From Tubulanus polymorphus (taxonomy: Eukaryota > Animalia > Nemertea): 64,000 bases of DNA. The DNA lies in contig NC_134027.1 in the NCBI RefSeq assembly GCF_964204645.1, positions 5,116,485-5,180,484 on the forward strand. Reading direction: 5' to 3'. Positions 1 to 47,020 of the stretch are shown here, piece by piece (position 1 is the first letter of the stretch; every line of letters begins with the position of its first letter). The position numbers were made by a program, and so were the translations under genes. The notes under the pieces are model-generated. The model made no database searches and was not told where the DNA came from. It saw nothing but the letters and a program-made list of their open reading frames with translations.

Positions 1-209
1 CAATTATTCTTGCTATTTCCTGATATTAACTCTCAAATACCATGACTTCCCACAATTCTAAGGAATTCTAGACAATTCGAACTCTTCATTGACTTGAGCA
101 CTCAAAGGCTGAAATTCCCTGACCTTCTAACACCTCAGAAAACGCTTTTTAAATTACGTGGCTTCCCGGGTTTTCACTGATTGCAGGAACCACGTTATAG
201 GAAATTTAC

Positions 210-3200
210 CGTAAAACTGCTACTTCATTCTTAAACGCCTGCATCTGCGCTTCAGTCGGTTCAACTACATTCAATCGTTTCACAGCAACTTGACCATGCC
301 AGTGACCTCTGTATACAGTTCCAAACGATCCTGATCCTATTCGGTGGCCGATCTGGATTTCAGTTGTCGGTATTTCCCAATCTTCATTCGAATCTCGACG
401 TGGAAGCTGTGGAAAACAAATCGAAGAAATTGCATCCGAAGTTATCCAGTCCAATATCTCCGTAAATTCAGAATAATCATCGAATCGTACCTTTTTCCTG
501 TGTTCGGATTCTGCAGATCTAGACCTAGTCCGTATTGTAGGCTGAGCTAACTTTGTAGGACTAGCACCACTTCCTGTGATTAATGACGTCGCTATATTTT
601 GACCTGGAAAACAGAAAAGATATGTTAGCTCATTGTTAAAATCTTAAGAGAATTTACTACCGCAATGAACACGTAAAGATTTGAAAAATCAAAACCACAG
701 GACCCAGTTCCACAACTGCAGTCAATGTTGAATGCAATGTCATTGAAAATAGAGTTAAGATGACACACAATATAGGAACCGAATCCTGAATTTCAATGGA
801 CTATGGAATATAATAAGTCAGGCTATAAACACTTTAAAAGAGTGGATATTTTCACGCATTGCCATCAATTTACTGTTATTTCATGCTGAAACTAACGGAG
901 ATAAAGCGTTTAGTGGAATTTGAATATCAAACAGATGGAAATCATACATCATTACAAATAACCATGTACAAGTAGTAAGAAGACATGCTGTTGTGTGCCT
1001 GTGCATATTAGATTTGTCGAGGGGTATTAGCAGAAAGCATCATAAATAAAACAGTGGTACCATAGCCCTTCTTCAGGGATATATTTCTTCTTTCATTTGA
1101 GTACACTACAGTATTCATTCGACTTTAATGTTTATGAGATTATTACATTTTTTCGCTGTGCGACAAGTTGACGGATCCAGTGAAATATAACCACAGATTG
1201 ATCATCATATACTAAAGCCCATTCTATATAGCGGTAGATAGCGGCCGAGGGTTTGTTTGAAAGCATTAAAAATCATGGTCTACATTTACTAGCAGGGGAA
1301 GAGTGTAAGATAGAGAAAGACACAAAGGTATAATAGCTGTTAATCAAATTGTTAGCTGCAGAAATACTAATAATAATCATACAAATAATATCTAAATAAT
1401 GATAACAGTCAGAATAATAATGATAGATTTAGTAATTGATACTAGTAATAGTAGTAATAGTAGTAGTAAGTAGTAGTAGTAGTAGTAGTTGTAGTAGTAG
1501 TAGTAGTAGTTAGCGATTCGCTCATTGAAGCTACCTTTATGAATAGTGGCATAATAGTGTTTTTGAGTCAGTTTAGGGCTTTCACAGCGCTTTATATCGG
1601 CTGTAGTCCGGTGGTTGAACATCAGGTCTGTAATTCAATAACAAACAACAACGACAGTCAGACAGAGATGAAAGTGCGATCACAAATAAATGCACACCAG
1701 TTAACAGCAGTAGGGAAACATCCGGATACAACGACCATAACTTACTAAGTACTAAGGATGGGAGCAAACATTTAAAATGTTAATCCCGATAGTGATGACC
1801 AAGGGTAAAACCAAAAATTTTACTCATAATATCATTACATGTAATGACACACAAACTAAGTCCTTGGTCAGCGTTTTGAATTATAACTACAATTTTCAGA
1901 AGCCAGGAGCCAGTAATGAATAAACATTGTTCAGTAAAATGGAGCAAAGTATCTTGTGAGCTCCTTCGTCAGATGAATCTTATACATACACGCATGTGCA
2001 TATATGCATTTATGTACAATATGAAATCAAAAGATTCTGACCTTCGGAGAAGAACGCCAATGTGGTAAACCGTAAATAACAAACACCACTTTTACCGATG
2101 CCATATAGGAGAAAACTAGTAGACATAATACACATAGAACTCACCTGCACTACTGGCACTGGTCGACGGGAACTTCCGTGTGACTTCCTGTAAAATAAAA
2201 TTTCACAAGGGTAGCTGGCATTTATAGTCTAACTGTATGAAAACATCTAATATAAATTTCAAATTATGATTATGTTAATGTTATCGAAACTCATGCACAT
2301 AACTGATTGAGATCAGGTAAATATATTCAAAATATATATAAGTATTGATAATACAAGTAAAATATATACGTATAAAAAGTACTGATGATGATTGGTAAAA
2401 TTAGGTACTTACCCAGGGAAAGAGAGAAAATTATAGCAAAACCTTAAGATAAGACGTGCTAAGAATAAAATGTGTCAAGAATAAAATGAGAAAGTACCCG
2501 TGAAAAAGCTGAATAAGGAATGTAGTAATGAAGATGACAATGAAAGAATACGGTCATTCAAAACCGAAGACAATTCCATTGTGAATTGAGTAGAGGATCA
2601 CGTCCATCAGGAAGGCAGAGTGCTACCATCACATTCTGAACTAGCGGAGACAGGTGATCGGTTAACGTGTTTTGAGGAATGATGTTGAACGAAATGCAGG
2701 GAATAGATAGAAACCAGCAGAAGTAAACTGCGGATACATGTAAGAGAACCGTACATGTAACGAAACACTCAGCCAGGTACTGTACATGTACATCACACAA
2801 ACTTCACTACTATAATTCACACAGTCACAGCGAATCTGAACTTACAAAATATGATAAGTCGCAATCATTATCACAAACGTAACAATACCTAACCATTGCG
2901 TATGTACCTGTATGGCGAGTCTTTTTCTGATTTCCTTAAGGTTATAAATGGATAAATGGCATCGAGAAAATATGATGAAAATCCATCACCTCGTTCTATA
3001 TGTTGAAATGAATGATGTGATAAACACCGAAACCGGGGCCTTGACCTTCAAGATATGCAACCGAAATACTGAATACCAGTAATTGATAACAAGTCATGAT
3101 TGAAGCTATTGTCTAACCTTGCCCTGGTCAAGGTAGATCGTCAAACCGGGAGCCTGCGGAAGAGACACAGGCGGTGTCACTGGTGCCACAAAGGGATGAT

Positions 3201-6200
3201 GACGATCCTGAAATGATGTCTCGTAAAAATAACTTTGAAAAGGGGGAAAATCCTGTCAAACTGTCAATAGCAGATACAACAAATCAGTTAATTCCGTAGA
3301 CATGTTGAATGTTGAAAATCCGTAATGTCCATTCACTTAGAAACATATGAACAACATTTAAGTTCACTTGGTGAAAATCAAACATGTTTTCTATATCAAT
3401 TGATTACATAAATAGAAAAAAATATATGCTGAACCCATTCCCAATAAGCAAAACAGACAACGATCAAGGCGGGTACTGGAATATAAGAATATCAATGAGA
3501 AAAATACTTCCCAAAATAGCGACTACCGTATTTATACTGAAATTCCTTATCAAATATCCAGAGAGGGTAAAATCAATAGCATAAAAGAAATTGTTCTTCC
3601 AGAGTTGGTTACACGTTTAGGATGAAGAAATAATCAAGAGGCGACAGCACAGTAACAACTAGGTCACCACATGTTCTAGAATTAGACATGAGAATTTTCG
3701 AAAACAGACTTCGACGTGACCAAAAGCAGGTAAAGTATACCTAATCCTGTTTCCGATTTAAGAAAAAAATTCCCCACGAACCAAAGGAAACTCAAAAATA
3801 ACGCTATAATCTATGATGGAAAGAAAACCACAGGAGCCTCTATCCCTGACATAAACACTGGCGTAGAAAATGGCAACTACCGGAATGTAGTATTTAAAAG
3901 TAGCCGGCGAATATGTGAGGGATACACCGTGACAAGGATATACACAAGACCGGCCCTACATTACCTCCTGTTGTTCATAGGACTCGGTGAATGATGAAGA
4001 GTCATGGTTAGGAAGCAAATTTCGCACATTGGGTGCAGAGGTCGATCGCTCGGGTTTGCGCCCGGCATCGGGATCGAGACTACTGTAAAATAACACATAC
4101 GTAAAAAAACTACCATTCAAAGCGCAGTTACACACACGAAGGTGGCGGCGCATTTCTCCACTCAGATATAGATAATAGAGATAATGACACGTGCTGCAAT
4201 AGGAAAACATATAAATAATAATGATAAATATAAAACAACGTAACATAGTTGTCGCCCTTGCTTTGACGCAGATGATTAGCACATGAGAAAGGCAACTTGC
4301 GGTGTGAGTTGGTTTTGTACGCTTCTTATCTATGATTTAGAAAATTCAAAACATTCTCTCAGTAAATGATGCGCATTATTATCATTAGATTTAATTGATT
4401 TGAATACGAAATGAAGGGCTACTCAAAATGCAGGCTGCTTTTTTACATGTGACAGACGTATGCGCGCGTGCAGGGCGAACAGTATATAATGACATACCTC
4501 CACCATACTACCATCGCCTGCATTGACTAGATTCAGGCAAACATTAGGAGCTGAAGTGGATCGCTCTCTATGGGCAAGAGGAGGCGCACGTGATCGTGAA
4601 ACCGTTTGAGGCCTATTGTAGAACATCGATAGGGTATTAGGATGACCACTGCCCGCTGCTAACCAGCTATATTAAAGTAAAAGAAACGATAGAAGAAAAA
4701 TGAAAAACAAGTAAAAACATACACCACCGACACGGGTCGTAATTCGAACAAAAAAGTTTTGAGCGGAGACGGTAAAATGTAATCATAAAATCAACTGTTC
4801 AGCCACCTTGGATTACTGTGCGTATCGGAAATGCCGACTTATTTCTCGCAATTTCTAGCAGAGAAGAAAAACAAACGACTACACAATTCAACTGCAATGA
4901 AAACATTATTATATTCAGCATAAACTATCATAGATGTCCGTCGCGTGAATGAAGCAATCTTCGAATAATTATTGAATCGAAAGATATTGACATTTCAGTC
5001 CCAAATATTTCTAAAACTTTCAAAAATCTTCACTCTAAAGCAGAAAATCATCGATGATAGTGTAAATAAAGATTACAAAGCAGTCGTCATCGTGATTTAT
5101 ACCAAAAAACCTCTAAAATCGAAATATGTCTTTGCCAATTTCAGAAAATGTCCTCCAAAAAACATCATAATAATGACTACGGCAAGATTCATAACCATAT
5201 TCACAATCAATATAACAACTGCTCTGTTTCAGTGGAAATTAGTCAGCATTACCAAACACACACGTAATTCATATAAAATACAACCTAAAAATAATCCTAT
5301 ATATAAATATATATATATATACATATATAAATTACATATATACATATATATATATATATATATAAATATAAATAATACAAGAGCGTTTGACGAATACACA
5401 AGGTTTGGACAGATTTCGGGGGGATAACTTTGAATGTTAAAACGCATAACATTACCAGGTGTTGACACATATTTCATCCTCTCTGCTACTTATAGTGCTA
5501 TCGCTTTCTCTGGAGATTTTGAAGTAAAAGTCACCTCTGTTTGATATAGAGAAAAAAGAAAGGCAGCGTGAAGATGTTTTATCACAGAAAGTTTAAGACG
5601 GGAAGATGAAGGATTGAAATGAGATTTTTAATGATGTACCGGTATCCAATATGTATCTTGCACATTTTCTAAGTATGTTATTAGCCTCTCTAAATAGTCT
5701 TTCAAGGTGCTATTTAGCTTTTTAGAAATGTTGGAAAAAGGTCTTAAGTTAGGAGAAGCAAATATTGTGTAGTTTCCCCCAAAGATTTACAGTGAAATTT
5801 TTTCCAGTACTTGTGGCAAGAATAGTTTGAAATGATATCAAAAAGCATTCTGAAATTCAGGAGATGACAAGTTGTACAATTTCTATGTGGTTTTTCATAT
5901 TCCTTTTACTGTTTGATTAAAATTTTGAATGTAATTGCAGTGAAAATTTATTGGTTTTATTAGGTTTTTGTTCTAAATCAAGGATGAAGAAATAAAACAT
6001 TATACAATCAGGTCAAAACATACTTTGCGCACAGTTAGCATATTATATTCACAAGTTTTTACGATTGCCTTCCATCATGTCACGAAGATCAACATCGTGA
6101 CCTTTCACTTTCCTTGATTACTAACAGATTCTATTCGTACAACATGTTACATGTTACGAGACTAGGGTCAAATTGCATTTGATAAAATAAAGGTGACTGA

Positions 6201-9200
6201 AACCATTTATGTAAATATACATGTAGTATGTATCCAGACATGCTTCAAATTGACATGGATGGACATATTGATGATACAACTTATACAAATGATCAGGCCA
6301 GCACCAATCACAGGGTACCATTGATCAAACATATGCACAGGGACGGATATAGGGCCTGATTCAAGAAGGGGTGCACCCCAAAATAGGGCATAAAAACCCA
6401 TTGGAAAACATTATCTGGATCCACCCCTATTGCAGGCAGCCTAATAGGTGCATATCAGATTGGTACTGGCCTGAGTATGAAAACAGGGTGTTACACAACA
6501 GCTGAGTTCATCAGGTTTGGATTCTGATGGCAAAAATAAGAGATTATCTATAAAAGGAATAGAACATTGCGCATTATTTCAAGAGCTGAAAATAATTTCA
6601 AAGGTTAAAAGCATATATATCCTTAGGAATAACTTCAAACAATTTTCATGGAGCAAATTCGAAACTATTGTCACTTCATAGTGGTTTTTGGATGTTCAAC
6701 ATTTTCAAAGTTATTTCCAAGGATGACATTTTGTACTAAATAAGAAATGAAGAGGACAGATTTTGTCTACCTAGGGCTAACAGCAGTAACCACAGATTTG
6801 GTTCGCTAGCTACAGAATTTCCACATACACAGCCCAAAAGGAAATCAATCCAATTTCTACAAGGACTGAATGAAATCAACTTGAACAAATGGTATCGAAA
6901 ACTATCTTTGCATTGAATTATACATGAAATGTACTGTGTGTATGGTTTTTGTCGAAACAAAAGAAAAATTATATAAATGATAATAAAAACAATCATGGAT
7001 TGATGTCTGGAATAGAAATGGACGTAATCAGGCTGAAACAGAAAAGATATTCCACATCATGCTGGATATCCAACAAAAAACTGAGATCAAACTAAAAATA
7101 TTTTCATCGCAATCTTCTTTCGATAAAAAGAAATATATATTACCCTGAAAAAGATATAACAGCAGTATATCGAACTTTCGAATCAGATGGAATATTTTTT
7201 GATTAAATGAACTTAGCTAAGACGTTAAATATACCTCTTAGTCTTAAGAATAAGATTTTAAGCTGCATCTGGCACGAGATCTTTTTCTTTAAAAGGAAAC
7301 TTAATACAATTAATGCACATATTATGGTCCTAACGAGGAACATTTGAATGCAAATTGCAGCATAACCACGCACACACACACACGCACACACATAGTAAAG
7401 GATCAGGATGGCCCTTTTGAAACTAGAATGTAGCAATAACATGTAGACTTATTTTCTAAATATCAGTTGTAAGTTTGGGGATCAAACTTCAATCATGGAG
7501 GTTAAAACTAGTCGCGTATATCCAAATCTGAGTAAAAATAAGTTGAACATGAGCTGTTAATATTCAGCGGCTATACACTCTAGTTTCTAAAATGATAAAT
7601 CATCACATCACTCACATTTGCCATTTTGAGCTGTGTGAAAATTAGAAAACAAATACTGAGAATTCAAATTGCGCATCGAACAAATGCGTAAAACCCTCAA
7701 AAACTCTAACTAGCCACTTATAATAAAAATAGAATCTTTTTGGAAACCAAAATATGCTGCATTAAGATCGGGCCTCGTGTTTTATTGCTACCAATTTCTA
7801 AGAATACTCATACAAAGAGAAAAACTTTGAATCAATTCAGGTATTTCGATGTAAATGAATACCCGCAATCATTGACATTAATCAAATAGACATGCAATAT
7901 ATGAGACAAAAAGATGATAGAAATCAAAGCGAAAATTTAAGAAAGCATCGACCATCACTGAAACCACAGCAGTCTAAACAAGTATATCATTCTTCCCCTC
8001 AGTTCATTTCAAAATTTTGTCTTAAGTTGAGGAAACGCCATTGATTAAAACATGCTCATTGCTTGATTCTGAGTTATAGATACAAGCGGAAAAGAAAGTA
8101 TAAGAGAGGTGAATAGAATACGTACTGTTTAGCCGTTTCCCGAACATCGTGGTCGTAATACAACATGTCATCATCTTCTGCGGATTGCTGACACAATGTT
8201 GGCACGTCATCGGTACAACGTTGATGAAATCGGTAGCCACAAGTCTGACACCGAAATCCTTGGAACAATAGTTTCCTACAACTGTCACAGAATGCAAGAG
8301 TAAAGAATGTCTTCCGCACCTGAAATCGAAAGTAGAAAATAAGAAATAAACAAGCTACGCCTAATCAACGGTTAGACTGTCAAACCTCAAAATCAATGTC
8401 TTGCTGCCTGAATAGTTTCAATACAACATTTACCTATCGAGCATAACTTACAAAATTATGAGATATACTCGTAGGGGGTGGTAGGTTGCCCTTTAATTCC
8501 ACCATCAATTCTTCACCGGCAAGCGCAGACGTGTCAATGTCCCAAGGTATAATTGTTCTACAATGAAATATATACAGACATGAACGGAAATGATTTCCCT
8601 TATTCCGTATTTCATTTCGTTGAGCGTACCTCGTAGAACTGCGGATCACGATACACATTTCAATCGATAACTCTCGAATTCTCAAAGGTTTTTGTAACGC
8701 ATCGGCTAAAGTAGTGCCAGGCTTCACAGGTACCTGCATTTTAAAAGATGACAACGTTTCAAAAGCAATCGCAGATAAAAACCGTACAAGTTGAATACGC
8801 TATTTTGCGTCAACACATATAGGCCTACCGTTGTTTTCTGTTGATTTGGTAGGAATGCTTTTATAGTAGCTTTCATCGGCGAGCGGTGCTGCATTTGAGG
8901 ACTGTTCATTACGTTATCTCTCATAACCATATTTGTCAGATTACTTGAACTGTTATTCTCAGTTAACACACCACCACCTGTATCGGGATTGTCTTTTCCG
9001 TACACGGCTTCAGAATTACGTAGATCTATATGTCCAGTTGCTCTGTAATTGTCCTCACTGTAATCGTAGTCATCCGAGTCAGAACTCATAGAATCAACAT
9101 TGATTAGATCTAAAAGTTTTTGTTCTTTCTCTTGTAACTCGTGAATTTTGTTTGTAAGTCCTTCATATTCCTGGAATACAGAAATAGATTTCGATGAATT

Positions 9201-13092: not shown

Positions 13093-19689
<6,597 letters not shown>

Positions 19690-32396: not shown

Positions 32397-47020
<14,624 letters not shown>

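Follow-up and report, generated by a model that had tools for sequence, protein, structure and literature searches.

The Raf gene and its two CR2 exons

The stretch of DNA analysed here, a window of 64,000 nucleotides from the palaeonemertean Tubulanus polymorphus (contig NC_134027.1, positions 5,116,485 to 5,180,484), carries on its minus strand the 5' two-thirds of a Raf gene, in which the exon for the CR2 serine motif is duplicated. All features of this gene lie on the minus strand and are given in window coordinates. The RefSeq protein model, XP_074644385.1, contains the Pfam domains RBD, C1_1 and kinase, and the order of RBD, C1 domain (CRD), CR2 serine motif and kinase domain identifies the product as a Raf kinase. 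In an alignment with residues 357–375 of human BRAF, the CR2 serine lies opposite BRAF S365. The gene is named 'A-Raf-like' in RefSeq and had been labelled B-Raf in an earlier note made from the sequence of this stretch; the protein is nearer to human BRAF than to RAF1 (778 versus 641 bits), but the gene is an invertebrate Raf.

Two segments encode the nine-residue word ERSTSAPNV. Exon A (4498..4666; 169 nt, 56 codons) matches the RefSeq model at 100%, is spliced in sequencing run X2 and is of the RxRxxS type; its phospho-acceptor codon, at 4554–4552, is the one aligned with BRAF S365. Exon B (3965..4082; 118 nt, 39 codons) is an unannotated duplicate of A, with its serine codon at 4039–4037, Pro at -5 and Arg at +5. 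The two are adjacent homologous exons with an identical nine-residue core, separated by an intron of 415 nt (4083..4497). The expectation for a second copy of this word by chance within the 4.9-kb intron is about 1e-8, so that chance is no explanation for the second motif.

The frame relations are those described in the earlier note. Both exons are 3n+1 nucleotides long, flanked by AG and GT, entered in phase 2 and left in phase 0, and their borders resemble those of the other exons of the gene. The shared upstream exon, which encodes the CRD (8126..8319), exits in phase 2. Between this exon and a phase-0 downstream exon, the frame is open with A alone or with B alone; joining A to B creates a stop at the first codon of B, and omission of both leads to a frameshift and a stop. 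The earlier choice of 3207–3118 as the exon after A had to be given up, as both the RefSeq model and a contig of run X2 skip to the exon at 2145..2187. This correction leaves the phase logic unaffected, since exons 3207 and 2187 both enter in phase 0.

The locus contains a tandem duplicate of the CR2 exon, and we consider it likely that the two copies are spliced as a mutually exclusive pair. This reading is well supported because it agrees with the frame logic, with selection on B and with the A-or-B isoforms and tandem exons of related animals.

Paired CR2 exons in other animals

Relatives were collected by two protein searches, from which the best 120 of 719 and the best 120 of 1859 matches were used, and by inspection of 20 more clusters, the two largest represented by 15 of 29 and 15 of 23 members. 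In Lineus longissimus, which we take to be a heteronemertean, RefSeq lists five isoforms (XP_064631994/5/7/8/9). Isoforms X1–X3 contain a B-type segment, which exon B of Tubulanus matches, and X4–X5 an A-type segment with identical entry and exit points; none of the five has both. The brachiopod Lingula anatina is represented by five records, two with A only and two with B only (RefSeq XP_013407069/70/71/73), and a fifth, P0125, with both, A first. Alternative isoforms in RefSeq are generally based on aligned RNA. In Lineus and Lingula, B is attached to the CRD in all five B-only isoforms, and the two that were scanned contain both RBD and C1.

A single CR2 type was found in the isoform sets of Owenia (four of four) and of molluscs, chelicerates, crustaceans, echinoderms and cnidarians. 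This result is weak, because divergent B forms cluster separately, as they do in Lineus. The B segments of the two nemerteans, combined in a profile and compared with 1.84 billion representatives, gave one match, an unrelated repeat protein, and searches of the PDB with A alone or B alone returned no Raf. The Lineus B segment (P0004, P0122, P0123) reaches 205 residues by way of a repeat of the type Ser-Pro-Leu-Glu-Arg-Ser-Tyr-Glu, which is rich in candidate proline-directed sites.

Metagenome DNA was scanned with a degenerate form of the canonical motif in which Arg was fixed at -3 and position -5 left free, and 13 loci were identified. Five of these (L001, L005, L007, L011 and L012) have a second exon encoding S-A-P-N-V 69–636 nt downstream of A, and in all five both exons are 3n+1 in length, entered in phase 2 and left in phase 0. 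In L005 the CRD exon is, like that of Tubulanus, left in phase 2. The same locus falls with the annelid Paralvinella (support 100/97) in a tree which leaves L011 unplaced and omits four of the 30 reference rows (Lingula, Mactra, Patella and Asterias); for L001, L007, L012 and L013 the blastx ranks are too weak to name a phylum. Among 257 CR2 motifs, the best match to that of the Paralvinella gene model is B of L005 (score 24, against 8 for the next), which suggests that the model probably uses a B exon. The remaining eight loci have a single motif; two of them with arthropod-like best matches, L002 and L008, extend into the kinase exons, and a second CR2 copy is absent from both. L005 and L011 are different Raf genes, each with an A and B pair, on contigs with the same name prefix, and may be paralogues or come from two animals.

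In Tubulanus, the core codons of A and B differ at six of nine third positions and at none of the 18 first and second positions (Fisher p 2.8e-4, an optimistic value as the core was selected for amino-acid identity). From this pattern we conclude that B is old and constrained; a decayed copy of that silent divergence would not keep the remaining positions. Outside the core, Tubulanus B and Lineus B have five of 11 flank residues in common (permutation p about 0.001), namely Arg -7, Pro -5, Arg +5, Leu +8 and Pro +9, and their flank score of 22 compares with a best of 1 among 237 other CR2 motifs. These B-specific residues indicate that B is older than the split of Tubulanus and Lineus. Purifying selection on both exons is apparent from the silent-only core differences and from the comparison of L001 with L012, where the ratio of non-synonymous to synonymous substitution rates (dN/dS) stands at 0.046 in A and 0.083 in B (p 1e-14). 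Between the same two loci the A–B intron and 40 nt past B are nearly invariant despite a dS of 0.4–0.7, as expected if the exons are regulated.

Proposed consequences of exchanging the CR2 serine

RxRxxS is the substrate motif of Akt and SGK. It is complete in all eight paired A exons and in none of the nine B-type exons, eight of which lack the -5 Arg and four the -3 Arg (B of L001, L007, L011 and L012); S-A-P-N-V is kept in all nine. For Tubulanus this bears out the earlier observation that A has the -5 Arg, whereas B has Pro there and keeps RSxSxP. In PMC5042004, the 14-3-3 motif is given as RXXpSXP and its loss as raising signalling. Arg -3 and Pro +2 are present in both Tubulanus exons, and with S-A-P-N-V kept the B serine is probably still a 14-3-3 site. 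Kinases named for the CR2 site include AKT, PKA and LATS1 (PMC10948936).

The loss of RxRxxS from B, consistent from lineage to lineage, favours a changed kinase input. Each Raf molecule would carry either the canonical 14-3-3 site of A or the variant site of B, the latter being predicted to be phosphorylated and released differently. Provided that the pair is real, we propose, with some hesitation and as slightly less than probable, that B is less well phosphorylated by Akt/SGK-type kinases owing to its incomplete motif, and that the B kinase would be less firmly closed by autoinhibition or wired to other inputs. A switch specific to Akt is plausible, though more than one kinase is named for the site, 70 of 240 CR2 motifs are without the -5 Arg, and B differs from A also behind the serine and in linker length.

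It is also possible, but we think it rather unlikely, that a real and exclusive pair acts on something other than the kinase which writes the mark, namely on release by SHOC2-MRAS-PP1C or on the geometry between CRD and serine. Residues C-terminal to the serine, to about +13, have been modelled as a SHOC2-PP1C recognition element (PMC9452301), and the +5 residue differs between A and B in eight of eight pairs. The change in linker length expected in the earlier note is found, B shortening the CRD-to-serine distance by 23 residues in Tubulanus, 23 in Lineus and 15 in Lingula. However, B lengthens this distance by 39–78 residues in four of the five metagenome loci, so that length is not a common feature, whereas loss of RxRxxS is. 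An effect on release or geometry is compatible with a changed kinase input and does not exclude it.

The closest known system is splicing of the alternative exons 8b and 9b in the hinge of vertebrate B-Raf which tunes S365 phosphorylation and autoinhibition (PMC3008692, PMC3189609). There, the 9b forms show less S365 phosphorylation and resistance to PKA, and both exons are described as specific to vertebrate B-raf and absent from fly and nematode raf. In Tubulanus, splicing would likewise act on the S365 position in the Raf hinge. Exons 8b and 9b are, however, optional inserts beside a constant S365, whereas in Tubulanus the serine exon itself is duplicated and would be exchanged; B is no such insert, because it has a serine motif of its own and its addition to A breaks the frame.

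In its architecture the pair resembles exons 7a/7b of Fyn, adjacent homologous exons of the same phases of which one is used, and which also modulate kinase autoinhibition (PMC3189609). OGDH 4a/4b and ATE1 7a/7b are further tandem-duplicated, mutually exclusive exons. In contrast to these three, the Raf unit is a disordered linker in which the phospho-motif alone is conserved and B varies from 39 to 205 residues, and exclusivity would come from the frame and not from equal length. Human CR2 variants (BRAF S365 and P367, and Noonan RAF1 changes near S259) alter RXXpSXP and raise signalling, according to PMC5042004. Four of the nine B-type exons resemble them in lacking the -3 Arg, which Tubulanus B keeps. 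Those variants are disease mutations, whereas B is a natural, selected alternative exon which keeps the serine and the +2 Pro.

Full-text searches, mainly of non-subscription journals and with most matches seen as listings, revealed no duplicated or mutually exclusive CR2 exon reported for any Raf, in agreement with the earlier note; supplements of genome papers could list such isoforms. The public gene models of Lineus and Lingula already hold A-or-B isoforms, generated automatically and without comment, while the Tubulanus model is without B. The pair is a conserved, real and apparently undescribed variant of a familiar type of splicing, from which a specific functional prediction follows. 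CR2 is the central brake of Raf, and the kinases that set it are still attributed to several enzymes. A naturally selected pair of sites, with and without RxRxxS, offers a comparison for the effects of flanking residues on kinase choice, 14-3-3 binding and release by SHOC2-PP1C. It would also show that lophotrochozoans control Raf autoinhibition by splicing through a route other than vertebrate 8b/9b.

Transcripts, alternative readings and further features of the locus

Four Tubulanus sequencing runs (X2–X5), none of them on record as RNA, were compared with positions 1–5280 of the window, so that junctions with the CRD exon appear as loose ends. Spliced contigs are present in run X2 alone. 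They join A to 2187, 2145 to 1627, 1535 to 603 and 491 to 406, and the loose end of a contig at 4666 is the 3' end of the CRD exon, which gives the order CRD, A, 2187. Contigs of X3 and X4 are without splice joints and X5 has no aligned contigs; these runs provide no evidence either way. Of the junctions proposed in the earlier note, that of A with the CRD exon is seen, together with A to 2187, whereas 8126 to 4082, any junction out of B, and A to 3207 are not. Splicing of the CRD exon through B to the downstream exon is inferred from the relatives. A loose end in X3 lies at 3207, but it matches neither A, B nor any window sequence within one mismatch; nor do the loose ends of X3 and X4 fit restriction-ligation junctions, as one of seven lies at a site against a background of 13%. 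A 14-nt insertion allele at window position 826, within an intron, occurs in contigs of X2, X3 and X4.

Several observations weigh against the exclusive exchange of A and B or against its proposed effect. None of the four runs shows a splice junction at either end of B, X2 being the single informative sample among them and perhaps not independent of the RefSeq annotation; exon B and the 3207 exon lie inside an unspliced X2 contig of 2095 nt, and the one RefSeq model for Tubulanus is without B. The mutual exclusivity proposed earlier has the frame, selection on B and the relatives on its side, but B splicing was not seen in the runs of Tubulanus itself. The Lineus and Lingula isoforms are gene models whose RNA basis is assumed, the metagenome exons are predicted from DNA alone, and the Lingula record P0125 has A and B in tandem and in frame. 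The nine B-type exons represent perhaps four independent lineages, and their flanks have no detectable homology between phyla. Linker length shifts in opposite directions across lineages. Finally, the -5 Arg is absent from 70 of 240 CR2 motifs, mostly those of insects with a single copy, so that its loss is by itself no mark of special function. In Hymenoptera (P0044–P0064 and others), the only CR2 listed for bees, wasps and ants has Gln or His at -5.

An internal promoter in Tubulanus, whose transcript would contain B and encode a Raf without RBD and CRD, was an alternative of the earlier note which we now regard as improbable. The frame of B is free of stops for 85 codons upstream, to 4336, as are 0.5% of windows of the same length in neighbouring introns, and this stretch contains ATGs at 4246, 4210 and 4153. 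However, the acceptor of B is normal and in phase with the CRD donor, the open stretch reads as T-rich and intron-like, and the long 5' parts of B in four metagenome loci are internal coding sequence; the CRD-joined B isoforms of Lineus and Lingula weaken the alternative further. A longer B or an internal start in Tubulanus is possible, with an AG in the same phase at 4195–4194. The unspliced X2 contig terminates at 4254, near the ATG at 4246; this end was not used, as contigs cannot reveal a start.

Equally improbable is that B is a relic of an old duplication no longer used in Tubulanus, as its lack of annotation and of observed junctions would allow. Its intact frame and splice sites, the silent-only core changes and the flank residues shared with Lineus fit continuing selection instead, and an exon restricted to certain tissues could be missed in a single RNA-like run. 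Least probable of all is a Raf with two CR2 sites, made by co-inclusion of A and B by way of a different acceptor. It has a counterpart in P0125 and in five AGs that would yield an open A and B frame in Tubulanus, but the three AGs that keep the serine of B (4324, 4321 and 4048) have a pyrimidine content of 0.45–0.5 against 0.55–0.82 at used acceptors in a similar window, and P0125, recorded in MetaClust only and absent from NCBI and UniRef, is the sole protein with two CR2 motifs among the 241 in the set.

For a mutually exclusive pair, the decay of wrong products is the simplest common mechanism, as all examined cases obey the frame rule; as is generally established for such products, nonsense-mediated decay would remove transcripts that contain both copies or neither. 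Docking-site RNA structure received no support in Tubulanus, where inverted 12-mers numbered four, compared with 2.7 on average and 8 at most in 30 shuffles. One inverted pair of 27 nt joins 3227–3253 with 6690–6716; its significance needs related genomes. The A–B intron of Tubulanus, with 415 nt, branch-like words 109 and 218 nt from the A donor and no proximal branch point found, makes steric exclusion unlikely there. In L001 and L012 a branch-like word lies about 40 nt from the A donor, where steric exclusion is possible. The hexamer TGCATG, presumably an Rbfox element, occurs in the A–B introns of four of the five paired loci (L001 1131–1063, minus strand; L012 272–342; L007 1186–1342; L011 2491–2955), in three of them 8–14 nt past the A donor, and is absent from L005 and Tubulanus.

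The order of the exons, canonical copy first, and their phases agree between Tubulanus, the Lingula double record and the five metagenome loci. The evidence fits one old duplication or repeated duplications and cannot separate them. It is doubtful, though conceivable, that the CR2 exon was duplicated once, in an early lophotrochozoan, and that annelids, nemerteans and brachiopods owe to it a choice, made by splicing, between a canonical Raf and one uncoupled from RxRxxS kinases. If so, the B form of some worms would be a naturally de-repressed Raf, comparable to human gain-of-function variants of CR2, and the pair, by its presence or absence, would serve as a rare genomic character in the phylogeny of the spiralian phyla, whose relations are not yet resolved. 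For Annelida, Mollusca, Nemertea and Brachiozoa, no well-supported interphylum branch is reported in PMC13271739.

The N-terminal region and RBD are encoded upstream by exons 10345–10247, 9879–9778, 9170–8829, 8733–8630 and 8557–8452, assigned from RefSeq and the domain scan; the end of the hinge and the start of the kinase domain follow in exons 603–491 and 406–210, assigned from X2 contigs and the domain scan. Two candidate exons, both of which would preserve the frame, are omitted from the single RefSeq model, as is B. The micro-exon of 15 nt at 7616..7630, put forward in the earlier note, has strong-looking splice sites but is missing from the RefSeq model and from the X2 contig alike. The segment 3118..3207, an open frame of 90 nt between AG and GT, is an unsupported candidate for a frame-preserving cassette and has no match in isoform X1 of Lineus. 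The hinge exon 1535..1627 is included in Tubulanus; its counterpart is present or absent among isoforms of Lineus, Lingula, Patella, Biomphalaria, Haliotis and Gigantopelta, a second alternative event, and often contains a KRHxSDS motif resembling another basophilic phosphosite.

Two further genes were noticed in the window. One, at about 13500–19000 on the plus strand, is divergent from Raf and has a start rich in Lys, His and Arg and a kinase-like motif near 18815; we take it to be PRP4-kinase-like. The other, at about 34150–39000 on the minus strand, contains kinase motifs and is presumably of the CaMK type.
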